Made by a program: the position numbers and the translations under genes
The notes under the pieces: model-generated
What the model was told of the DNA's origin: nothing
The model's input: only the letters and a program-made list of their open reading frames with translations
The model's database searches: none
Shown here: piece after piece, positions 4,884-56,734 of the stretch
Position numbering within the stretch: position 1 is the first letter of the stretch
Layout of the letters: each line of letters opens with the position of its first letter
Assembly: GCA_903840165.1 (NCBI GenBank)
Contig: CAIMEY010000075.1
Coordinates: 44,365-108,364, forward strand
Direction: 5' to 3'
DNA from: an uncultured Myxococcales bacterium
Lineage (GTDB): Bacteria; Myxococcota_A; UBA9042
DNA: 64,000 bases

Positions 4884-6152
4884 ATGATCATGAAAGAACG
4901 CGTGAATTCTACTGGCGCTGGCCTTGAGTTTCTCGCCGCATCGCCCCTGCCCCTGTTGGCGATGGATCAGGGCTGGAAGGTAGTTCGCGTCAGCCGTGGC
5001 TTCTCTCGCTATTACGACGAGGCTTCCTTGACACAGCCGCCCAGCGCCTTGCCGACAAATGATCATGAAATTCAAGCGACTCTTCGGGTCAAGGATACCT
5101 CCGGCGTGCTGCAGACCTTGGCGGCCCGCGTTTGGAATTGGCATGACGTGACCGTGGTGGCGCTGGCCGGACCCCATGATGCTTCGCAGACGGCCCTGGT
5201 CGGACAGTTGCAACAGCGCTTGACGGAGCTGGAATCTCAGGCGCTGACAGATGCCCTGACCGGCCTATGGAACCGGCGCTACTTCGATGCAGTGGTCGGG
5301 GCTGAGATCGCCCGCGCCGCGCGATACAAGCATCCGCTGAGCCTACTGGTGCTCGATGTGGACCACTTCAAGCGTGTCAATGACGTGTATGGCCATGCTG
5401 TGGGCGATGACGTGCTCTGCGCCGTCGCCGGTCTTTTGAGAAAGCGTTGTAGAAACGGGGATATCCTGATGCGCTGGGGAGGCGACGAGTTCGCCGTCTT
5501 GGCGCCGCTGACCTCGCACGATGGGGCCCTGGCCCTGGCCGAAGGTCTACGCAGGGCTGCTGCCAACATGGCGATCGGCGCGGGAATTGCCGTGACCTTG
5601 AGCATCGGCGTCGCCGAACTGAAGGCCGAAGAATCCGCTGCGGCTTGGTTCCAACGTGTTGACAGCCAACTCTATGGCGCCAAAGCCAAAGGACGCAATC
5701 AAGTCGTCGCCGGCACCGAAGTGCAGCGGGGCCGTCGCGACAGCGCCTTGCAGTTCGCATGGCGGCCGGAATATGCCTGTGGCCAAGCGACCTTGGATGA
5801 CCAGCACCGCATTCTGTTCCAGCTGACGAACCGCGTACTGGCCGATGCAGGTCTGAGCGGCGAGGCGGGCAGGCCGCACCTGCTCGAGGACCTGGACCAA
5901 CTCCTTGACCACGTAGCTATGCATTTTGCCGATGAAATTGATATTTTGACGGCAGCTCAATATCCCGCTGTGCAGGCGCACGCCCAACTCCACGCGGCAC
6001 TTCTCGCTCAGGCGCGGCAGTTGCGGGCGGAACTCGTCGACCCGAAGACCGAACTCACCGCGCTCCTGGATTTCCTGGTCCACGACATGGTCCATGGCCA
6101 TGTTATGGAAGAGGATCGCATGTTTTTCGCCCACGTCGCTGAGCTGTCTTAG
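4884..6152 (+). CDS. Diguanylate cyclase (GGDEF) with C-terminal bacteriohemerythrin-like domain and N-terminal sensory domain
   Basis: GGDEF block LTGLWNRRYFD...LLVLDVDHFKRVNDVYGHAVGDDVL...RWGGDEFAV; C-terminal H/E/D spacing (HFADEID...HAQLH...HDMVHGH...EEDRMFF) typical of hemerythrin. By RBS spacing (AGAGGG) the more likely start is the ATG at 4890. Confidence 0.8.
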   Translation: MIMKERVNSTGAGLEFLAASPLPLLAMDQGWKVVRVSRGFSRYYDEASLTQPPSALPTNDHEIQATLRVKDTSGVLQTLAARVWNWHDVTVVALAGPHDASQTALVGQLQQRLTELESQALTDALTGLWNRRYFDAVVGAEIARAARYKHPLSLLVLDVDHFKRVNDVYGHAVGDDVLCAVAGLLRKRCRNGDILMRWGGDEFAVLAPLTSHDGALALAEGLRRAAANMAIGAGIAVTLSIGVAELKAEESAAAWFQRVDSQLYGAKAKGRNQVVAGTEVQRGRRDSALQFAWRPEYACGQATLDDQHRILFQLTNRVLADAGLSGEAGRPHLLEDLDQLLDHVAMHFADEIDILTAAQYPAVQAHAQLHAALLAQARQLRAELVDPKTELTALLDFLVHDMVHGHVMEEDRMFFAHVAELS

Positions 6153-6176: not shown

Positions 6177-7550
6177 TCAGCGCGCCGACGAGCCTGGGCT
6201 TTGGCAAACGGGTACCGCCCGATCGACCTGCTGCAACGCCTTGATCTGCTGCTGCAACTGGTCGATCTGCCTCTGCTGATTCTGAATCGTCGCCACGGCC
6301 ATCGATAAATAGCCATACAAATCGACCATGTCCCGCTCGGGGTCGACAGCAGGGCTGTGCGGGTCATCGTCAATGATAAAGCCCAGGTGGCGCCGGCCCT
6401 GGGGCCCCGAGGCGGTGTATCGGTAGCTCGCCAGACGGGTTTGCAGCAACTGGTTGCTCAGTTGGTCTTGGTCCGATGGCGTCAAGTACTGAATTTCCGT
6501 CTTGTACTGCGCCTTGGAGATCGGGCAGCCCTTCTGCTTGGGATCGCTACTGGCGCAAATCAGCATTTGGCCGCAGCCGAGTTTGGGGTCGCATTGGGTG
6601 CCGGCGGCGCTGCAGCTGTCGCCCGTCTTTTCGCTGGTGCACAGCGGGATGCCCGGGGTGGCTTGCCACTGGGTGCCGCAGACCGGATTGCCGCAAGTCA
6701 CATAGTAATTCAGCCCTGTTGCCGGTGCACAGGCGCTGCTACTGGCAACGTTGGTGCCGCTACCCTGGGCGGAGCAGGCGTTGCCGTACGTCTTGCCGTC
6801 GCAGCCACAGACAGGCGCGTACTCGGCCGTACAAGTTTCTGGTTTTGCGACGCAATTTCCTGCCCCGCCGCAGCTTAAGTCGCTAATCATGCAGAACTTG
6901 CCGGTGCCGCAGGTGTCCTTGCCGCCGACCACACAACTTGTTGAAATGCTGCATGAACCTGGGTGATTGATGGTGGTGCCGCCGGCGTTGGCCATGCAAT
7001 CGTTGCAGTAGGCCTTGCCGTCACAGCCGCACAGCATGTCCGCCGCGCAATTTTGCGGGCACATCTGCGGCATGGCGGTGCAAGTTCCTGTTGCGACGCC
7101 ACAACTGCCCGTGGCACCCGCGCAATACTGGTTGGCGGCGCATTGACCGGGGATGCCGACTTGGCAGGCCCCCGCGACTTTGCAACTCCCTGCCTTTGCG
7201 AGGTTTACCCCGGACATCGCTGCCACGCAGGCCGTTGCATAGTCCTGGCCATCGCAGCCGCAGTTGGTCAAGCTGGTGCTAGGAGAACAACCGCTTGGAA
7301 TTACCTTGCATTCACCGTTACCGGCGCAGTCGCCGAGGGCCTTGGCACAAAACTGACCGGCGCTGCAGTCGGTGTTGACCTTGCAATTGCCTGTCACTTC
7401 GCTAGGCGCGGCGTCGGTGTCGCCCAGGGTGCCTGTGTCCCCGCCGTTGCTGCTGGCGTCGGCGGTGCCGCTGCTGTCGTCAAAGACGCAACTGGTCAGA
7501 ACCAAGGTTGAAGAAATGCCCAACAATATCAAATGATTCTTCAGTCTCAC
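6177..7550 (-). CDS. Lipoprotein with three or four Kazal-like Cys-rich modules and a C-terminal intramolecular-chaperone (peptidase S74-like) domain
   Basis: GTG start at 7550 after strong RBS GAGGGAGG; lipoprotein signal VRLKNHLILLGISSTLVLTSC; Kazal signatures CGCDGQDYATAC, CGCDGKAYCNDC, YAPVCGCDGKTYGNAC; C-terminus SKAQYKTEIQYL...RRHLGFIIDDD...LYGYLSMAVATIQNQQRQIDQLQQQIKALQ resembles the endosialidase/tail-fibre chaperone domain (SDxRLKTNI...HIGFIAQEV...coiled coil). Confidence 0.65.
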   Translation of the reverse strand: MRLKNHLILLGISSTLVLTSCVFDDSSGTADASSNGGDTGTLGDTDAAPSEVTGNCKVNTDCSAGQFCAKALGDCAGNGECKVIPSGCSPSTSLTNCGCDGQDYATACVAAMSGVNLAKAGSCKVAGACQVGIPGQCAANQYCAGATGSCGVATGTCTAMPQMCPQNCAADMLCGCDGKAYCNDCMANAGGTTINHPGSCSISTSCVVGGKDTCGTGKFCMISDLSCGGAGNCVAKPETCTAEYAPVCGCDGKTYGNACSAQGSGTNVASSSACAPATGLNYYVTCGNPVCGTQWQATPGIPLCTSEKTGDSCSAAGTQCDPKLGCGQMLICASSDPKQKGCPISKAQYKTEIQYLTPSDQDQLSNQLLQTRLASYRYTASGPQGRRHLGFIIDDDPHSPAVDPERDMVDLYGYLSMAVATIQNQQRQIDQLQQQIKALQQVDRAVPVCQSPGSSAR

Positions 7551-7688
7551 AGCAACCTCCCTCAAACGTCGCGGGCAATCATGCCTGCTCATCCAGTGAA
7601 GGATTCAACGACCGAAAAGTCAAGGCACTTTGTTGCTGGATCAGGGCCTCAAGCCGCACGGGGCGATAGGCCGGCAGCAGGCCCGGGC

Positions 7689-7757
7689 GCCCGCCCTTGA
7701 AACTAGAACCAAACACCGTACCTCTAACCCGCTAGGAACTTCGGGTTAGAGGCACTA
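7689..7757 (-). repeat. Copy 1 of an ~65-80 nt conserved element abutting a stop codon; contains 10-bp perfect inverted repeat cctctaaccc/gggttagagg
   Basis: 86% identical to 39950-40023 (cccttgaaactagaa..aggaacttcgggttagagg..ctag); its final CTA is the TAG stop (minus strand) of the reductase gene; on the gene strand the hairpin is followed by a U-richer tail guuugguucuaguuucaaggg. Confidence 0.6.
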
Positions 7758-8816
7758 GATGCCCGGGCCTTTGAGCGCCAACTCCCGCAGCAAATCGGGA
7801 TGGTTGTGCCGCAGCCACTCAATCGTGTCGGCCAAGGTCTGCCGCGCCGGGCGAGGCTGATACCCCAGTTCTTTCGCGGCGTAACGGGACTTCAGGCCCC
7901 ACCAGCGGCTGCCCATTTCAATGACCACCGGGTCTGGCAGTGGCGAATGGGCACCGGGCCACAAAGCGGTCGCGCGGGCGGCAGCGGAAGCCAATGCATG
8001 GGCAGCTCGCGTCGGTAGCACGCGCGTTGGTGCGATAACGCCTGAAACTTGTTGGCAAAGTTGAAAGAAATCGCCAACGCTCGTTTCGGTGCCGGGCAGG
8101 TGATAGATGGGCCGGCCGGCGGGATGGTCGATGGCGCGCACGATGGCGGTCGCGGCGTCACGAATGTCCGTGAAGTTCATGCCGCCGGACAGCACAAATG
8201 GCAGCTTGTGCCTCAAGAATTTCAAGACGTTGCCTGAGGAGCGGAACTTATGGTCGCCTGGGCCGAGTAAGACCGGCGGACGAATCACCGTCATCGCCAC
8301 ACCCAATTCCACTGCTAGCGCGCGGGCTTGGCGCTCGGCCTTGATCTTGGAGTCGTAGTAAGGCCAACGGCGCGCCAACTTGTCGCAATAAGGCGCATCC
8401 TCATCGGCTTGGTCCCGCGGATTGGTAAAGCAACCCACCGTCCCTGATGTTGAGACAAAGACAAGGCGGCACCGGGTCTTAGCTGCCAAACGCACCATCC
8501 GCAGCGTGCCGCCAATGTTGGTGTCGTACACGTGCTGGGTATTGCGGCGGCTGTGCTGGACCACAGCGGCGAGGTGGAAAATCCCTACAAGACCCTGCAG
8601 TTGAGGGGTATTGGTCCAGCCTTGGTCGTCGGTAACGCTGCCCTGGATGACTTGGACGTCGGGGAAATCCTTAGTCCAATCCATCCGTTGCCACTCGGCC
8701 GGGTGACGCACCAACGCCAAGGGCCTCAAGTCCGGACGCAAAACGCCAAGCGCTGTCAGCACATGGCGTCCAAGAAAGCCGGTCGCGCCGGTCACGAGCA
8801 CTGTCGGTTTGGTCAT
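7755..8816 (-). CDS. NAD(P)-dependent epimerase/dehydratase-family (extended SDR) reductase; candidate acyl/alkyl-DHAP reductase
   Basis: MTKPTVLVTGATGFLGRHVL Rossmann motif at the chosen ATG (8816); last gene of the AGPS / FAR-GNPAT operon. The functional assignment is inferred from operon context only. Confidence 0.6.
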   Translation of the reverse strand: MTKPTVLVTGATGFLGRHVLTALGVLRPDLRPLALVRHPAEWQRMDWTKDFPDVQVIQGSVTDDQGWTNTPQLQGLVGIFHLAAVVQHSRRNTQHVYDTNIGGTLRMVRLAAKTRCRLVFVSTSGTVGCFTNPRDQADEDAPYCDKLARRWPYYDSKIKAERQARALAVELGVAMTVIRPPVLLGPGDHKFRSSGNVLKFLRHKLPFVLSGGMNFTDIRDAATAIVRAIDHPAGRPIYHLPGTETSVGDFFQLCQQVSGVIAPTRVLPTRAAHALASAAARATALWPGAHSPLPDPVVIEMGSRWWGLKSRYAAKELGYQPRPARQTLADTIEWLRHNHPDLLRELALKGPGI

Positions 8817-8906
8817 GGTCTTGCTGGTCCTGGGGCGCTGGAGCTGCACGGACGAGGCCCTCTGGCGCATGGGCAGATGCACAAAATCCCTTGATTTTGC
8901 AGAGGA

Positions 8907-11639
8907 CTACGCCTGGGCGGTACGCATGGGCCGTCCGGCAGCCGCACGTTCTTCCGGCCAAACGCAGGCTTGCTGGTAGGCGGGCAACGTCGCGTGGGCC
9001 GGACCCCAGGCCACTGCGCCCTGGCGGCGGTCCAAGACCAGAATTTCTCGCTGGGCGAGGTCTTCTAAGGCCGCCTGGAGATTGGGCAAATGCGCGCCCG
9101 GGGCTTCAGTCAACAGGCTGCGGGCCGAGGCATGGCGCGGCGCAAAATCCGGCGAACCTAGGCGTTCGGCCACCGTCAGGTAGTCGCGGGCAATCGGTTC
9201 GAAAATTGCGCGAAGCAGGCCACGCAGTCGCGCATCACGCAGTTCCAACTCGCCGACTTCGCGCTCCGGGGCGTGAAAGCCGTGGTATTGCGTGTGGTGC
9301 TGCACCGCCGGATGGTCTGGCCACAGGGCGCGCGCCTCGGGGTAAAACAGGTGCAACCACTGGTAACGCATACACATTTCGCTGACGTCATCCATGTCGT
9401 CCTCGATGTCCAGGGGACTGTCGATGACTAGGCCGCCCCGCCGTTCCAGCGCATCGCGCAACCACTGTTCGCTGACGCCGGGCAGGCGATTGTGGTGTAA
9501 AAACGCGCGCAAGTGGTGAGTCGTCGTCGCTGTTTTGTCCTGCAGTTCGGCCATGACATCCATGGCTACGCTGCGAGCGTCGGCCTCGGGCGTCATCACC
9601 ACGGGATCGCCACAGGCAATGTGCACTCGGCCCAGATTCACTTGTCCTTGCGCCATCTTCGCTGACCATGCCAGCAGGGCCCTCAGCTGCATGTCCGGCC
9701 GCGCATGGCCACGCAATTCGCGCAGCAGGGAGGCCTCCTCCGGCATCCGGTCGTAGGTCAGGCTAATCGGCAGAATCGTAAACGTTTTCCCGGTTCCTTG
9801 CAGGCAGCGCAGGAGCCCATGGCGCGGCTGGAGAAATTGTCGACTGCGGCTGCGGGCGCCCTCGATGAAGAACTGAATGGTCTGGCCCTGCCCAACCAAG
9901 CCATGAACATGATTGGTTAATTCCTCGTCAATCTTGCCTTGGCCCCGCCGCAAATAGAAGGCCTGCGTCTTCTTGAACAGTTCGCCAAGAATCGGAATCT
10001 TGCTGAACTCTTCGGCCGCGGCGATGTGCGGAATAGCAATACCCAGGTCAGGCCGGGCAAAGAACAGGTAACTGCACAGCAAAAAGTCCATGTAGCTGCG
10101 GTGCGACGGCACAATGACGTGCAGGCTGCCCGGCGCGGTCTGGGCCACGGCGCGCTCAAAGCTCAGGCGATCAAAGGTGACTTCGGACGTGCACTGTCGC
10201 AGTGCCTTGCGCACGGCCAAGGCAAAGGTGCGGATGGCCCAGTTGCCATCGGGCTGGCCCAAGGCGAACTGCAGATCGCCGAGCTGTCCTGGTAACGCCC
10301 CAGCATCTTTGTGTTTTCGGCCCGCCAGGCTCATCTGCGTTTCATCGCGCTTGTACAGGTGGCGGTAAATGCCGCGGCAGCACAGTTCGATGTAGTCCAG
10401 CTTACGGAACAGCGGGTCTTGTAGGGGCTGGGAGGCATCAAACGCAAACGTGTTGCTGGTGAAGTAGGGAAAAGCTTCGTTGATATACTTCAGTTTTTCG
10501 GCAAGTTTGACCACACGTCGCGCCTGCTTGGCTTGGCCGGTGACCTGCATCGCCGTGCGCGCCAGCCGGGTAGGCAGGCGGTGAAGACGCAGTTCGTGGG
10601 CCTTAAACGTCGCGGAAGGATTGAGAATATAGCGGAGCTCGGGCTTGCGGTCGATGGGATACCGGGCAAAGAAGGAGACGATGGCGTCGGCTGATTCGCG
10701 GATGCCGCCGCAGTTCGCCAGACCCGCAACGGCGTGGCGGATTCCCCATTGAATTTGCGGGCCAAAGGCAGCGTCGAGGACACGGTCGCTAACGACGTCG
10801 CAGGGCACAATATCGAGCTTGGCGGCGCTGTGGCCGGTCATCACCCGCATATGCCCAGAACCAATCAGCAAAACGAAGCCGGCAAAGGCGGCGGCACTGT
10901 CGATCCAGCCCGGAAAGGGATGCTGCCAAGTCGCTGAAACAATGGAAGGACGCACGATGCACAGGGGCACGTCGCCGCGATGGCGCTCGAGCAGGTGCTC
11001 GGTGATGCACTTGGTGAAGGTGTAGGTATTGGGATGCCCCGTCTCAGCCAGTAAAACCTTTTCATCGGCGCGGCCTTGCAAGATGGCCTCGTAGACTTCC
11101 TGCGGGTCGCGCACCATGGGCGCGAGGACTTCCTCCACGAACTGCGGCGCCGTTGGGCCTCCCTCATGGCGATGGGGCGTCACGTAGGCCGTTGAAACGC
11201 TGACCATTTGCTTGAGCTTGCCGCAGGTCTTGGCCAGAGTCAGCACGTTGAGCGCGCTGCTAATATTGGCCGCGGCGGCCTCGGCGATAGGCAGGTCGAA
11301 CTCGACGGAGGCGGCGCAGTGGACGACGTGCGTTACTTTCTCGCGTAGCAGCTTCAGATCATTGCGGTTAAGGCCGCATTCCGCTTGGCTGAGTTCCCCC
11401 GTGGCAACCACGCAGCGCTTGACCCAATCGTCTGGAAGTAGGCGAAAAGCCGGCGATTCGGCGGTTTGTGCAAAGCGCTCTTGCGGCGTCTGCCCCTTCT
11501 TGGGGCGAACTAGGACATAGACGGCTTCAATGCCTAACTCTAGGCGTCGACGCATCAATTCCGCCAGAACGACTTTGCCGACAAAGCCAGTAGCGCCGGT
11601 CAGAAGGACGTGGGCATCGCGTACGGGTGCGAATTTCAT
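8907..11639 (-). CDS. Bifunctional fatty acyl-CoA reductase (FAR1-like) / dihydroxyacetone-phosphate acyltransferase (GNPAT-like) fusion
   Basis: N-terminus LLTGATGFVGKVVLAELM, YVLVRPKKGQTPQER, VSTAY, PNTYTFTK, VRPSIVSATWQHPFPGWID match animal FAR1 almost block for block; C-terminus carries the GPAT/DHAPAT motifs HRSYMDFLL and FFIEGARSRS (human GNPAT: HRSYIDFLM, FFLEGTRSRS); ATGA overlap with upstream AGPS. Confidence 0.85.
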   Translation of the reverse strand: MKFAPVRDAHVLLTGATGFVGKVVLAELMRRRLELGIEAVYVLVRPKKGQTPQERFAQTAESPAFRLLPDDWVKRCVVATGELSQAECGLNRNDLKLLREKVTHVVHCAASVEFDLPIAEAAAANISSALNVLTLAKTCGKLKQMVSVSTAYVTPHRHEGGPTAPQFVEEVLAPMVRDPQEVYEAILQGRADEKVLLAETGHPNTYTFTKCITEHLLERHRGDVPLCIVRPSIVSATWQHPFPGWIDSAAAFAGFVLLIGSGHMRVMTGHSAAKLDIVPCDVVSDRVLDAAFGPQIQWGIRHAVAGLANCGGIRESADAIVSFFARYPIDRKPELRYILNPSATFKAHELRLHRLPTRLARTAMQVTGQAKQARRVVKLAEKLKYINEAFPYFTSNTFAFDASQPLQDPLFRKLDYIELCCRGIYRHLYKRDETQMSLAGRKHKDAGALPGQLGDLQFALGQPDGNWAIRTFALAVRKALRQCTSEVTFDRLSFERAVAQTAPGSLHVIVPSHRSYMDFLLCSYLFFARPDLGIAIPHIAAAEEFSKIPILGELFKKTQAFYLRRGQGKIDEELTNHVHGLVGQGQTIQFFIEGARSRSRQFLQPRHGLLRCLQGTGKTFTILPISLTYDRMPEEASLLRELRGHARPDMQLRALLAWSAKMAQGQVNLGRVHIACGDPVVMTPEADARSVAMDVMAELQDKTATTTHHLRAFLHHNRLPGVSEQWLRDALERRGGLVIDSPLDIEDDMDDVSEMCMRYQWLHLFYPEARALWPDHPAVQHHTQYHGFHAPEREVGELELRDARLRGLLRAIFEPIARDYLTVAERLGSPDFAPRHASARSLLTEAPGAHLPNLQAALEDLAQREILVLDRRQGAVAWGPAHATLPAYQQACVWPEERAAAGRPMRTAQA

Positions 11640-43919: not shown

Positions 43920-45035
43920 TTAGGGCGCTAAACCTACCGTCAATACAGCAGATTTTACGGTTGCAGTGCTTTGGCAGCTTGCCTGAGACAGGGGCTTGCC
44001 ATCGATGCAACCGGTGGCGTAATCGCCGCTTAGCCGGTATTGCCCTAGTCCTGGGTTGGCCGGAGCCATCCATGCCTGCGTGTCGGCGTAGGTGCCGGCC
44101 AAGACCTTGACTTCAATGCCTTCCCACAAGCAGTCGGCCTGCACGGGTAGGGCCTTCCAGGTGCTGCCGTCGCTGCTTGATTCGCCGTTGTAGGTGTTGC
44201 AACCGCCTAGATAGATAGGGTTCTTGCTGTTGTTGATCCAGGTCACGGGCACAGACTGTCCGGGTCCGACCATGCCACCGCTGCGCGGCCACAAGATCAC
44301 TTTGCCGACATCGCCGGCGCTTGGCGTGCAGGTGCCCGGCTTGTCTGGCGCGACGCAGTCGGCGTTGGGCGGGCAGATGCTGGCCCCTTCACAGGTGGAT
44401 CCGGGGTAGCAACTGGCTATTTTCTCGCTGCTTTCCGGCCAGCACTGTCCAGGGTCGACGGCGGCCAAGCACCAGCCAGCCTTACCCTGCGCAGGCGAGG
44501 CACCATGGCAGATTCCACTGTCACAGTTGGCATAATCATAGCAATTGCCGGGGATTAGCGTGGGAAGGCACCAGCCCATCGGCTTGGCGCCACAGTTCGG
44601 GCAACTCGGGGTCCAGCAGGAAAGGCCGAGGCCACAGTTGTTACCGCCCATGCCACAGGCCGTCGGTTGTGTCGCGTCGACGTCGGATGATGAAATATCC
44701 GTTGAATCAGGTGGTTGTGTGGCATCTGTACTGTCCGCACCCGTCAGGCCATCGCTCACTGTCGCGTCGGATTCAACGGCGTCCAGACTGTCGGCGTCGG
44801 CCGGCCCCGTGTCGCCCACTGCGTCGACATCGCCAGAAGTGTCCAAAGTTGTGCCTAGATCTGCCGCGGAGTCACTGTCTGCTACCGCGGAGTCACTGTC
44901 TGCGACCGCGTCTGTGCTCGCCGTGTCGGTCGCCGTCGCGTCGGTCCCCGTGCCCACTGGGACCGTTGTCCCGCAGCCTGTTGCTAAGGCGACGAGTCCA
45001 AGACTTGCCGCAATCCATACGTTTTTTGCATTCAT
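43920..45035 (-). CDS. Lipoprotein with Asp/Thr-rich linker and Cys-rich C-terminal domain
   Basis: MNAKNVWIAASLGLVALATGC lipobox; long DTASTDAVADSDSA low-complexity linker; C-terminal domain with 16 Cys. Confidence 0.6.
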   Translation of the reverse strand: MNAKNVWIAASLGLVALATGCGTTVPVGTGTDATATDTASTDAVADSDSAVADSDSAADLGTTLDTSGDVDAVGDTGPADADSLDAVESDATVSDGLTGADSTDATQPPDSTDISSSDVDATQPTACGMGGNNCGLGLSCWTPSCPNCGAKPMGWCLPTLIPGNCYDYANCDSGICHGASPAQGKAGWCLAAVDPGQCWPESSEKIASCYPGSTCEGASICPPNADCVAPDKPGTCTPSAGDVGKVILWPRSGGMVGPGQSVPVTWINNSKNPIYLGGCNTYNGESSSDGSTWKALPVQADCLWEGIEVKVLAGTYADTQAWMAPANPGLGQYRLSGDYATGCIDGKPLSQASCQSTATVKSAVLTVGLAP

Positions 45036-51325: not shown

Positions 51326-51799
51326 CTACGTGTTACGGCGCAATTGCCAATGAATCAAAGCTGTTCGATTGGGAACCACGGAGCGACGCGTACTCACCTG
51401 CGCCCAAGCCGCGTCTAGGTTCAGTCCTTGGTGGGCCACCAGCCAAGCGATGGCCACGGTCGGCGAGCGATTCAGACCGGCGGTGCAGTGCAAATACACT
51501 GATCTTCCGCCGGCATGCATCGACTGTACAGCTGCCACGGCATCGGGTAGCCCTTGGACCAAGCTGATGTCGTCAAAATCTGTAATCGGCTTGCGTTCCG
51601 CGGAGATTCCTTGGGCCATGAGGAAGCGCCACAGCAGGGCCCAGGTCAAGCCCAGGGCTTCTAAGTCCCGATCGGTCTGAACGCAGACCAGGGCGTTAAT
51701 TCCCTGTTGGCGCAGGGCCTTAATCCGCTCCGGCGAATCCGGGCAGGGACCGACAAAGAGGCGATCAGCCACTTCATGGAACTCAAAGCTTTGCGGCAT
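51326..51799 (-). CDS. Dual-specificity protein phosphatase (CX5R)
   Basis: VYLHCTAGLNRSPTVAIAWLV = HCxxGxxRS P-loop. Confidence 0.75.
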   Translation of the reverse strand: MPQSFEFHEVADRLFVGPCPDSPERIKALRQQGINALVCVQTDRDLEALGLTWALLWRFLMAQGISAERKPITDFDDISLVQGLPDAVAAVQSMHAGGRSVYLHCTAGLNRSPTVAIAWLVAHQGLNLDAAWAQVSTRRSVVPNRTALIHWQLRRNT

Positions 51800-54658: not shown

Positions 54659-55405
54659 ATGAATTCCGCGCCTCAGCCCCATCTGCCGGTGGCGACTGCC
54701 CGCCAATTGCTCGACGCGTTGCTCTTGCGCGCCAAAGGGGCTCCGGTCCGGCCTTGGGTCGCTCTGGACCTGGATGGAACCCTCTTTGATAACCGTCCAA
54801 GAACGCTGGCAATTCTTCGGGCCTTTGCCCTGAGCTTGCGCGAAGAAGTCCCCGAACTGCAGCAGGCCGTACAGGACGTGCGCATCGAGCAACTGCAGTA
54901 CAGCCCCAGCCAGGCCGTGGCGGCTTTGGGATTGCCTCATGAAGATTTGCCTAATCGTTTCATGGCTTTTTGGCGCGATCGTTTCTTCACCAATGCGTGG
55001 CAGGCTCTTGATGCTGTGGAAGACGGCGCCGCTGCCTTTGCGCACGCACTGGTCGATGCGGACCTCGGCGTGGTGTACCTGACCGGCCGCGACCGCCCGG
55101 GGATGATGGCAGGTGTGCTGCATGGCCTTGATGTTCATGGGTTTCCGTTGATGACGGCGCAAACCCAGGTCGTGCTCAAGCCGAGCTTTGCGATGGGCGA
55201 CATCGAGTTCAAGCGCCAAGCTCTGGGGCAATTGACCCGCAATGGCGCGGTCCTCGGTCTGGTCGATAATGAGCCCGGCATCGTCAACATGGCCCTGGAA
55301 TTGGTGCCTGACCTGCTCGGCGTGCGGATTTGCCGGCCGGCGGCGCCCAATGCGGAGACATTGCGGCAAAACGCTTGGCAGATCGGTTCGTTCCTGCTGT
55401 CGTAG
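54659..55405 (+). CDS. HAD-superfamily hydrolase
   Basis: Motif I LDLDGTLFDN; GAGAGG RBS. Confidence 0.7.
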   Translation: MNSAPQPHLPVATARQLLDALLLRAKGAPVRPWVALDLDGTLFDNRPRTLAILRAFALSLREEVPELQQAVQDVRIEQLQYSPSQAVAALGLPHEDLPNRFMAFWRDRFFTNAWQALDAVEDGAAAFAHALVDADLGVVYLTGRDRPGMMAGVLHGLDVHGFPLMTAQTQVVLKPSFAMGDIEFKRQALGQLTRNGAVLGLVDNEPGIVNMALELVPDLLGVRICRPAAPNAETLRQNAWQIGSFLLS

Positions 55406-55602
55406 CAGCGTACCGGTCTGCGCCCGGTGTTGCCGGCGTCGCTGCGGCGATTGACACTGCGCCAGCAGATCTTTATGCTGCCGCCCCCGCTTGGGCCCTG
55501 CGGCGCGTAGGTTGCCGCAAGCAAGGCCAAATCAGGCCGCGTGAACCCGGACTGGCCCTCAGCCGTCCCGTGTAAACCTAGTGTTATTTCGGAGCTTTTG
55601 CC

Positions 55603-55869
55603 ATGACTGATGCCATCAACGCCCCGGCAGGCGACGCCGCTTTGGTTGCCCGCGTGCAGAACCACGGCTTCTCGCCCGTTGCCAGCCAATGCGTCGGCTG
55701 CGGCCACATCCGCCTTGTCGACGGCGTAGCCTACTGCAACAGCTACGCCAGCCCCGAAGCCAAGTGGCTGAGCGGCATGTGCAATTTCGCTACGCACGCC
55801 AAGATCGAACGCGTCAAGGAAGTCCGCTCGATCAATCCGTTGAAGGCGTCCAAGCGCGGCGGTAAGTAG
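55603..55869 (+). CDS. Small Cys4 zinc-ribbon-like protein
   Basis: CVGCGH...YC...MC arrangement; 88 aa; upstream of the enoyl-CoA hydratase gene. Confidence 0.45.
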   Translation: MTDAINAPAGDAALVARVQNHGFSPVASQCVGCGHIRLVDGVAYCNSYASPEAKWLSGMCNFATHAKIERVKEVRSINPLKASKRGGK

Positions 55870-55903
55870 TCGAAGTAGAACGCAATTCGCAAGCGAGGCA
55901 GCG

Positions 55904-56734
55904 ATGGCCGAGGCCACTGTGGTGCGCAGCGAGGGTTCCGATCCAGGCCAAGCCAGCGACGACCTCGTTACCCGCGAGGACGACGGTGCGGTGGCGATCT
56001 TGCGCGTCAACCGTCCCAAGGCCCTCAACGCCTTGGACGCGGCGACGCTGCGGCGGATTGGTGAGCGAATTGCCGAAGTTGGCGCTGATGATGCGGTGCG
56101 GGCCCTGGTCCTCACGGGCAGTGGCACCAAGGCCTTCGTCGCCGGTGCGGACATCGCGGCCCTGCGCGACATGAATCCCGAACAAGCAAGCGCCTTTTCG
56201 CGACTCGGTGGCGGCGTTTTCCGCCAGCTGGAGCGCCTGGGCAAACCGACCCTGGCGGCCATCAACGGCTTTGCCCTGGGCGGCGGCTTGGAACTAGCCC
56301 TTGGCTGCGACGTGCTGTTGGCGGCTGACCATGCCAAATTTGGCTTGCCTGAAGTGACGTTAGGCGTCATTCCTGGCTTTGGCGGCACCCAGCGCATGGC
56401 CCGCCTGATCGGTGCCAATGCGGCGCGGCTTTGGGTCATGTCCGGGGAAATCTTTAGCGCTCAAGAGGCTTTGCGCCTGGGTTTGGTCTACAGCCTCCAC
56501 GAGCCCGAGGCGCTGCTGCCGGCCGCGATCGCCTGGGCGCACAAGATGGCCAGCCGTGGTCCCCTGGCTGTCGCAGCCGCCAAATCGGTGATTGACCGCG
56601 GCTTGGACCTCGGTTTGGATGCGGCAATTGAGCTTGAATCTCAAGCCTTTGGTCAGTGTTTTGCCACAGCCGATCAGCGCGAAGGCATGGACGCCTTCTT
56701 GGCCAAGCGCCGCCCTGAATTCCGCGGCCAGTAG
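55904..56734 (+). CDS. Enoyl-CoA hydratase/isomerase (crotonase family)
   Basis: LTGSGTKAFVAGADI, oxyanion-hole GFALGGGLELAL, FGLPEVTLGVIPGFGGTQR. Confidence 0.85.
   Translation: MAEATVVRSEGSDPGQASDDLVTREDDGAVAILRVNRPKALNALDAATLRRIGERIAEVGADDAVRALVLTGSGTKAFVAGADIAALRDMNPEQASAFSRLGGGVFRQLERLGKPTLAAINGFALGGGLELALGCDVLLAADHAKFGLPEVTLGVIPGFGGTQRMARLIGANAARLWVMSGEIFSAQEALRLGLVYSLHEPEALLPAAIAWAHKMASRGPLAVAAAKSVIDRGLDLGLDAAIELESQAFGQCFATADQREGMDAFLAKRRPEFRGQ

Follow-up and report, generated by a model that had tools for sequence, protein, structure and literature searches.

A Predicted Lipid-Anchored Trimer of the Myxococcota That Joins Kazal-Like Modules to an S74-Type Chaperone Cassette

The window examined here, a stretch of 64,000 nucleotides (positions 44,365 to 108,364 of contig CAIMEY010000075.1, assembly GCA_903840165.1), derives from an uncultured Myxococcales bacterium and carries at 6177..7550, on its minus strand, a gene with a GTG start codon and a TGA stop codon (6177-6179) for a predicted lipoprotein precursor of 457 amino acid residues, hereafter the Kazal-S74 protein. 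Profile and alignment evidence indicates that its C-terminal 113 residues are homologous to the intramolecular chaperone (S74) domains of phage tail fibers; ahead of these stand a conserved eight-cysteine domain and three Kazal-like modules. We propose, with a probability of about 0.55 for the proposal as a whole, that the product is a self-cleaving, trimeric, outer-membrane-tethered lipoprotein which displays inhibitor modules. Residue numbers are those of the full open reading frame (ORF; 6177..7592, 471 residues), and subtracting 14 converts them to the numbering of the 457-residue protein, which begins at 7550. All coordinates within the gene refer to the minus strand.

The S74-type chaperone domain

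The domain occupies residues 359-471 (113 residues, 12.7 kDa; 6180..6518), with a predicted self-cleavage point between Ile358 and Ser359. It opens with the predicted catalytic dyad motif S359-K-A-Q-Y-K364 (6501..6518) and runs out into a long C-terminal helix with a heptad repeat (residues 425-459; 6216..6320), presumably a trimeric coiled coil. Three features that a preliminary description of this DNA had singled out, namely SKAQYKTEI (with Ser359 and Lys364), HLGFIIDDD, and a terminal heptad pattern, are all present, and the terminal helix extends over 35 residues in the AlphaFold model (model positions 134-168). The endosialidase sequence SDARLKTNI with which the first of these had been compared needs a minor correction: at its annotated cleavage site the K1F endosialidase reads SNGERK (SNGERKTEP), and the SDxRLK form is seen, as SDRRLK, in the tail fiber of the T5-like phage AKFV33. 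The heptads, three to four in number, follow the pattern I-x2-Q-x3-I-x2-L-x3-I-x2-L with an invariant Gln (residue 439) at a core position; in the 62-sequence alignment A2, Q148 is invariant and L155 and L162 are conserved at ≥90%. The family also shows weak matches to the trimerization coiled-coil families TolA_bind_tri and Trimer_CC.

Searches with phage profiles tie the domain to tail fibers. The window protein matches the PHROG tail and tail-fiber profiles phrog_5555 (E 2.8e-6), phrog_372 (7.1e-5), phrog_1980 (2.2e-4), and phrog_17524 (3.3e-4), each match beginning at the Ser or one residue earlier and running to the C-terminal end of the phage profile; phrog_5555 is matched by 47 of 62 relatives as well, the best at 4e-10. 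PF13884 is the sole Pfam family to be matched repeatedly, by 22 of 23 close relatives and by 50 of 62 diverse ones (19 of the 62 at E≤2e-4), and its cut-off of 22 bits is exceeded by the homologues P0112 (24.8 bits), P0135 (23.2), and P0169 (23.0). The first of these, 52% identical to the window protein overall and 59% over the C-terminal domain, passes Kazal_1 (29.0 bits) in addition to PF13884. Of the top 120 homologues, 64 keep the domain, with an identity of 52-67%; a search of NCBIfam gave no informative match.

With a family consensus as the tblastn query, 45 phage genome records with tail-fiber C-termini were recovered, and most of those listed are annotated as tail fiber, one of them as “intramolecular chaperone-containing tail fiber protein.” Over its full length, the family hidden Markov model (HMM) can be aligned with the C-termini of four phage tail fibers (17.7-38.8 bits), whereby the S-x4-K of the family falls on the phage sequences SRRELK, SGRDFK, SSREYK, and SDRRLK. 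The Ser/Lys dyad, which the preliminary description had left to be checked by alignment, was found in 136 of 137 representatives chosen without regard to the motif, and both residues are invariant in A2, whose 62 sequences are 37-61% identical to the window protein.

Structure prediction from a 23-sequence alignment reached a pLDDT (predicted local distance difference test) of 69, and Foldseek returned non-significant matches of that model to myelin regulatory factor (MyRF) and endosialidase; the 62-sequence alignment yielded an improved model, which is the one used here. In this monomer model the chaperone-domain fold is recognizable as a helix, a β-hairpin, and a long C-terminal helix, the last of which forms a three-helix bundle in known S74 trimers, and there are fold matches to all four solved chaperone-domain structures (3GW6, 4UW8, 3GUD, and 7DC3). 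Together with the PHROG and family-wide PF13884 matches and the S-x4-K alignment, these matches bear out the S74-type domain that had been proposed.

The phage S74 domains (MEROPS S74; PF13884), typified by those of the K1F endosialidase (3GW6), the T5 L-shaped tail fiber pb1 (4UW8), and the GA-1 neck appendage (3GUD), share with the window domain the C-terminal position, the S-x4-K dyad at the domain start, the succession of helix, β-hairpin, and long terminal helix, sequence homology at the level of PHROG and Pfam, and the fold match. They belong to virion proteins, whereas the window protein is a chromosomal bacterial lipoprotein; their clients are triple β-helices or fibers, whereas the presumed client here is a 60-residue eight-cysteine domain; and in the window family the Ser is usually followed by Arg or Lys. 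Compared with the K1F domain and its insertions, the window domain is short (113 residues) and insertion-free. The ICA domain of MyRF (7DC3) is part of a eukaryotic transcription factor, in which cleavage frees an N-terminal trimer from a C-terminal membrane anchor; the anchor of the window protein is N-terminal instead, so that the predicted cleavage would release the chaperone fragment only.

Chromosomally encoded, S74-ended proteins are also known as the mosaic adhesive trimeric (MAT) fibers of Bdellovibrio. These comprise ~1,000 residues, with a conserved β-rich N-terminal domain of 130 residues, a β-helix before the S74 domain, and an SDxxxK motif; one of them, Bd3182, self-cleaves at the Ser, and the substitution S782A blocks cleavage (PMC10769870). 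Chromosomal coding, (predicted) secretion to the cell surface, the S74 end, and modular passenger or tip regions are common to these fibers and the window protein. Unlike them, the latter has 457 residues, is Cys-rich and predicted to be lipid-anchored, and is without fiber repeats or β-helix. Its residues 36-69 form a tether and residues 70-288 are Cys-rich, and by this description it is set apart from the MAT fibers rather than filed with them.

Many chaperone domains of the family end in C-x6-9-C-[RK], as in ARCAQAAAVCR (alignment A1, columns ~125-140), and the window protein keeps one tail Cys, Cys463 (6204-6206). Possibly this tail is an inter-chain disulfide staple or a sorting cue.

The eight-cysteine domain, the cassette family, and the Kazal-like modules

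The preliminary description had the chaperone attached to the Kazal array. Its immediate fusion partner is in fact a conserved eight-cysteine domain (residues 292-358, YYxTCGxPVC ... GCPI; 6519..6719), which comprises ~60 residues directly upstream of the cleavage Ser and conforms to the consensus [WY][YF]xTCGxPVC ... C ... C ... CD ... C ... C ... DP ... GCPxS. All eight Cys, the G, the P, and the D-P are invariant among 62 diverse relatives. In the monomer model this domain is predicted at a pLDDT of 79-98 and contains three short strands; it is likely, we presume, to be the client of the chaperone.

A profile of the C-terminal region was searched against 1.84 billion cluster representatives (clusters at 50% identity) and recovered 1,601 proteins at E≤1e-3, of which 339 reach E≤1e-30. 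The eight-cysteine domain is also where nearly all matches start, ~28 residues ahead of the Ser, and every member has its chaperone domain at the C-terminus. The sequence ahead of the cassette varies from 9 to 578 residues. Most members are short Myxococcota proteins of 200-300 residues, in which a signal peptide or lipobox and a low-complexity tether precede the eight-cysteine and chaperone domains, and a Kazal signature is found in just 2 of 137 representatives, the set being made up of new ones beyond the initial homologue retrieval. Because most members are without Kazal modules, the real unit, as read from these sequences, is the eight-cysteine domain plus the S74 domain, a general C-terminal cassette; its N-terminal passengers are interchangeable, and the Kazal array, confined to the branch nearest the window protein, is one of several. 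In longer members the passengers are other Cys-rich sequences, which match NTR, Dickkopf, and ZU5 weakly (the NTR- and Dickkopf-like matches staying below cut-off). In the paralogues P0037, P0040, P0036, and P0010 an Antistasin domain (PF02822; 26-30 bits, cut-off 21.2) precedes the Kazal sequence. The confidently identified passengers are the Kazal and antistasin inhibitor modules and, by these domain matches, two unrelated families of serine-protease inhibitors are present on one scaffold.

A public metagenome protein of 173 residues (P0127) is identical to the window protein from GCPISKAQYK to QQQIKAL and has unrelated flanks on both sides; it stems either from a chimeric assembly or from genuine recombination of the chaperone domain.

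The passenger of the window protein consists of three modules of ~70 residues. Module 1 (residues 70-137; 7182..7385) contains 10 Cys and is Kazal-like with a non-canonical 8-residue loop, SPSTSLTN. Module 2 (residues 143-214; 6951..7166), likewise Kazal-like, contains 12 Cys, one of its two extra Cys lying in the 9-residue loop PQNCAADML; phmmer aligned this module with an ovomucoid domain. Module 3 (residues 220-288; 6729..6935) contains 10 Cys, and in its C-terminal half there is a true Kazal domain, with the reactive-site loop C-T-A-E-Y-A-P-V-C. Matches of module 3 to modules 1 and 2 (E 6e-8 and 1.4e-7, ~38% identity) are beyond chance, and on this sequence likeness the three are homologous. 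The three Kazal signatures noted in the preliminary description are thereby upheld as three CGCDG motifs (residues 111, 188, and 262) in homologous modules, with the correction that two residues, not one, precede the Tyr (CGCDG-xx-Y-xx-[A/D]C).

Taken by itself, module 3 passes both Kazal_1 (31.3 bits, cut-off 21) and Kazal_2 (27.2 bits, cut-off 22.8), as expected of the serine-protease-inhibitor type, and among solved structures it matches ovomucoid, elastase inhibitor, SPINK1, and others at E ~1e-5. Its C-T-A-E-Y-A-P-V-C...K-T-Y-G-N-A-C lines up with C-T-L-E-Y-R-P-L-C...K-T-Y-G-N-K-C of ovomucoid, so that the canonical loop is complete and the Asn of T-Y-G-N is retained; the reactive loops of elastase inhibitors likewise align with it. 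We take P1 to be the second residue after the loop Cys, as is general for Kazal domains, and the predicted P1 is therefore Ala256 (6825-6827). Loops were compared in 66 homologues with the same C-terminal cassette: of 116 loops, 108 are of the canonical length, 7 residues; Y, P, and V are kept, while P1 varies (K 28, M 25, A 16, T 9, L 8, others). A conserved scaffold with a variable P1 is the pattern expected of working Kazal inhibitors, and to judge from the loops only one of the three modules, module 3, looks inhibitor-competent.

With the Kazal inhibitors (MEROPS I1; ovomucoid third domain, SPINK1, and the multi-Kazal proteins of Planctomycetota and Myxococcota) the window protein shares, in module 3, the signature C-T-x-E-Y-x-P-V-C-G-x-D-G-x-T-Y-x-N-x-C, and its tandem array is paralleled in ovomucoid. 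It differs from them in its predicted lipid anchor, its S74-cassette cap, a five-Cys sub-domain before each Kazal half, and its Cys pattern. On alignment with ovomucoid, the fifth Cys of classical Kazal domains, three residues after C4, is missing from the Kazal halves, and there is an extra Cys in CGCDG, two residues after C3; the count stays at six, and the classical six-Cys pattern (C1-C5, C2-C4, C3-C6) is not obtained.

Each module is built of a five- to six-Cys N-terminal sub-domain followed by the Kazal-like half (6729-7385). This order is the follistatin (FS) layout, and there are weak matches in the Protein Data Bank (PDB) to follistatin and FSTL1 (E 0.02-0.7).

Proposed assembly and competing explanations

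In the proposed sequence of events, the precursor would undergo Sec export and then lipidation at Cys35, with sorting probably to the outer membrane. The C-terminal 113 residues would act as a domesticated phage tail-fiber chaperone, three copies of which would join via the terminal coiled coil and template a trimer of the adjoining eight-cysteine domain; the Ser359/Lys364 dyad would then cut the Ile358-Ser359 bond and release the 113-residue fragment of 12.7 kDa. What remains would be a trimer of 324 residues and 31.5 kDa per chain, held together by the eight-cysteine cap and anchored by its flexible-linker tether. The mature part contains 40 Cys besides the lipidated one, an even number per module and enough for 20 disulfides on oxidative folding. 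We infer cleavage and trimerization because the S74 domains of phage proteins and of Bd3182 behave in this manner experimentally. Three Kazal-like modules would be displayed per chain, module 3 with its canonical standard-mechanism loop and Ala as P1, and in the cell envelope the protein would most likely act as a multivalent inhibitor on a tether; its targets, to judge from the small P1, would be serine proteases of the elastase or subtilisin type. One example of such a role would be the self-protection of a protease-secreting predator. Protease inhibition by module 3 is favored because its loop is intact, P1 is variable across homologues, and antistasin modules have been co-recruited. A functional analogy is offered by ecotin and other envelope-located bacterial inhibitors, which are oligomeric and protect the Gram-negative envelope from serine proteases; their folds are unrelated to that of the window protein, and they do not combine a lipid anchor with a self-cleaving assembly domain.

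A number of results weigh against this proposal. The preliminary description had let the S74 assignment hinge on the PF13884 profile, and here the window protein stays below the gathering score, with 15.8 bits as a whole (E 0.018) and 18.0-18.7 bits as the isolated domain; the cut-off is a database threshold and not a biological feature, and the other evidence outweighs the miss. Sequence profile searches of the PDB with the C-terminal alignments A1 and A2 returned no chaperone-domain entry, only chance matches at E≥0.05, and hhalign of both alignments against the single K1F chaperone-domain sequence aligned the terminal helix only, at a probability of ~1%. The latter failure is put down to the K1F domain being too divergent and bearing a large insertion; as query for a canonical S74 alignment it gathered only 3 proteins. 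Where an Asp usually follows the Ser in S74 domains, 244 of 302 family members have Lys or Arg. In all characterized S74 cases the client is a trimeric β-helix or fiber, whereas here it would be a small disulfide-rich domain, modeled as a monomer only, for which neither a Pfam family match nor a fold match of its own was found. Modules 1 and 2 are without a canonical reactive loop and, each searched alone against Pfam, gave no match. With the fifth Cys absent and the CGCDG Cys added, the disulfide topology of the Kazal halves must, on alignment, differ from the textbook Kazal map. Most cassette proteins are without an inhibitor module, and the cassette's own function may therefore be adhesion or recognition. 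Finally, no protease gene was a conserved neighbor across the neighborhoods compared, and a crude motif screen of the window detected no clear S1 or S8 protease, the ORF at 55138-56460 having only an HGT motif.

The main rival accepts that the S74 cassette trimerizes and self-cleaves and regards the Kazal-like modules as adhesive or structural, that is, as rigid disulfide-rich spacers or binding modules of a surface adhesin or recognition protein whose business end is the cap. The scarcity of Kazal signatures among cassette proteins (2 of 137) would make the cap the conserved functional unit; the degenerate loops of modules 1 and 2 and the weak follistatin-like layout (E 0.02-0.7) point the same way, since follistatin-type modules bind ligands and are not inhibitory, and the predatory Bdellovibrio provides a precedent in its S74-terminated adhesive fibers. 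Against it stand the full canonical loop of module 3 with the Asn of T-Y-G-N, the variation of P1 on a conserved scaffold, and the independent recruitment of antistasin-type inhibitor modules to the same cassette, and we consider this explanation unlikely, while taking it seriously. Distinctly less probable is that the C-terminal domain is a degenerate relic of a chaperone, retained uncleaved as a permanent coiled-coil trimerization domain. The replacement of the Asp by Lys or Arg in 244 of 302 members, the Pfam score under threshold, and a client which is not a β-helix would suit a relic; but in phage chaperone domains, too, the cleavage point can be followed by SR, SG, or SS, and in K1F itself by SN, and a Ser and a Lys at exactly the catalytic spacing in 136 of 137 representatives, invariant in the 62 of A2, would be hard to explain without catalysis.

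We attach very little weight to the notion that the gene is the remnant of a prophage tail-fiber gene, or that its likeness to S74 is a chance match to a coiled-coil-rich sequence. The Pfam E-value of just 0.018 leaves some room for it, as does a tblastn search of 50,697 phage records, in which the C-terminal domain of the window protein itself gave one irrelevant match, the phage tail fibers being reached only when a family consensus was the query. The gene nevertheless lies among chromosomal housekeeping neighbors, with partial synteny in a 47% identical orthologue and no phage genes, and no relative was found in 2.9 million viral contigs.

A full-text search of the literature found no publication on the Kazal-S74 architecture or on bacterial Kazal arrays. 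To that extent the architecture is undescribed, as the preliminary description had supposed; in the databases some family members are already labeled, the NCBI name of a Sorangium member being “tail fiber domain-containing protein” and two members being named “Chaperone of endosialidase” by JGI. Cellular uses of S74 (MyRF and the Bdellovibrio MAT fibers), database-annotated bacterial Kazal proteins, and these pipeline-tagged members are already known. Four points appear to be undescribed: that the client of an S74 domain is small and disulfide-rich, that the cassette family is so large and so restricted in lineage, that it occurs in a lipoprotein setting, and that it is used to carry inhibitor modules.

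At a little under even odds, we would generalize the proposal to the family: the cassette may be a Myxococcota-centered “trimerize, cap and self-cleave” unit of ~1,600 clusters, in which a domesticated phage chaperone assembles a tiny disulfide-knotted trimeric cap, in place of a β-helical fiber, and provides a platform for interchangeable lipid-tethered trimeric passengers, the Kazal members being the first trimeric, membrane-tethered, autoprocessed inhibitor arrays. S74 domains are known from phage tail spikes, MyRF, and the prey-recognition fibers of Bdellovibrio, each assembling a β-helical trimer. If the proposal is true, the same device is able to mature a small disulfide-rich domain, and a bacterial lineage that includes protease-secreting predators has spread it over hundreds of lipoproteins. 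Protease-inhibitor biology would gain a testable case of avidity achieved through trimerized Kazal or antistasin modules at the bacterial envelope, and the 180-residue cassette could become a compact self-removing trimerization tag for disulfide-rich proteins. Experiments are feasible, as a member (P0281) occurs in the cultured strain Sorangium sp. So ce321.

Envelope signals, gene organization, and genomic context

The claim that the product is a lipoprotein holds on inspection of the N-terminus, MRLKNHLILLGISSTLVLTS|C. The signal peptide (residues 15-34), together with the lipobox L-T-S-C, spans 7488..7550 and combines a basic n-region (MRLKNH), a hydrophobic core (LILLGISSTLV), and a lipobox that conforms to [LVI][ASTVI][GAS]C. 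Lipidation is predicted at the +1 residue, Cys35 (7488-7490), equivalent to Cys21 of the 457-residue precursor. Lipoproteins of Myxococcus xanthus are marked for retention in the inner membrane by Lys at +2 and for export to the matrix by Ala at +7 (PMC3222651). The window protein, which has Val at +2, possesses neither the +2 Lys nor the +7 Ala, and because both signals are absent the outer membrane is, by default, the probable location. A crude lipobox pattern was present in ~175 of 255 relatives with a signal-like N-terminus, and 1 of these 175 has Lys at +2. Inspection further reveals a low-complexity tether rich in D, S, G, and T (residues 36-69, 34 residues; 7386..7487); G/S/D/A-rich tethers also follow the lipobox in short relatives such as P0281 of Sorangium.

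The GTG at 7550 is preceded, 6 nt upstream, by GAGGGAGG as Shine-Dalgarno sequence, and the 457-residue protein is 100% identical to P0001, a gene-caller product on 8 public contigs. Upstream of the gene, an inverted repeat of 11 bp without mismatch (cctctaacccg / cgggttagagg), enclosing a loop of 10 nt, is found on the minus strand at 7721-7752, directly past the stop codon (7755-7757) of an epimerase-like gene (7755..8882, minus strand). This hairpin, which the scan tool passed over since its loop is >8 nt, is likely a terminator from its sequence and position, and because it follows the stop codon of the upstream gene the Kazal-S74 gene is probably its own transcription unit. A scan for consensus promoters upstream of the gene found none. 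The gene occurs in a single copy within the window.

The close subfamily is represented by 55 loci in a scan of 185,579 species genomes, almost all of them in metagenome-assembled genomes of Myxococcota/Polyangia, many from lakes and groundwater and often with 2-3 paralogues per genome. The wider family includes the cultured Sorangium member P0281 (241 residues), laid out as lipobox, linker, eight-cysteine domain, and chaperone domain. Neighborhood comparison revealed neither a conserved partner gene nor phage genes across the loci compared. The neighbors in the window are chromosomal, namely ether-lipid genes, a GGDEF-hemerythrin protein, and a glycosyltransferase; partial synteny, involving the ether-lipid genes, was seen only in the nearest orthologue, P0003 (47% identical). 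The ether-lipid genes occupy 8907-11639 (minus strand) and the region upstream of it, where a 910-residue fusion of Epimerase/NAD_binding_4 with Acyltransferase adjoins a FAD_binding_4/FAD-oxidase_C gene; they look like a myxobacterial ether-lipid set of the ElbD/alkyl-DHAP-synthase type, and P0003 has the same flanks. On the other side, a fusion of a GGDEF diguanylate cyclase with hemerythrin (4884-6152, plus strand) converges with the Kazal-S74 gene, the two stop codons being 24 nt apart. At the loci L001 and L002, which extend over the same genome region beyond the gene, genes of the BshC type (bacillithiol synthesis) and for a PIG-L deacetylase and a DUF2169 protein lie ≤10 kb from the gene.

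One further occurrence of the motif CP.S....K in the window, at 51326-51799 (minus strand), was rejected as a coincidence (CPDSPERIK) inside a phosphatase-like ORF. This ORF of 157 residues contains the motif HCTAGLNRS, which resembles the signature of dual-specificity or tyrosine phosphatases.

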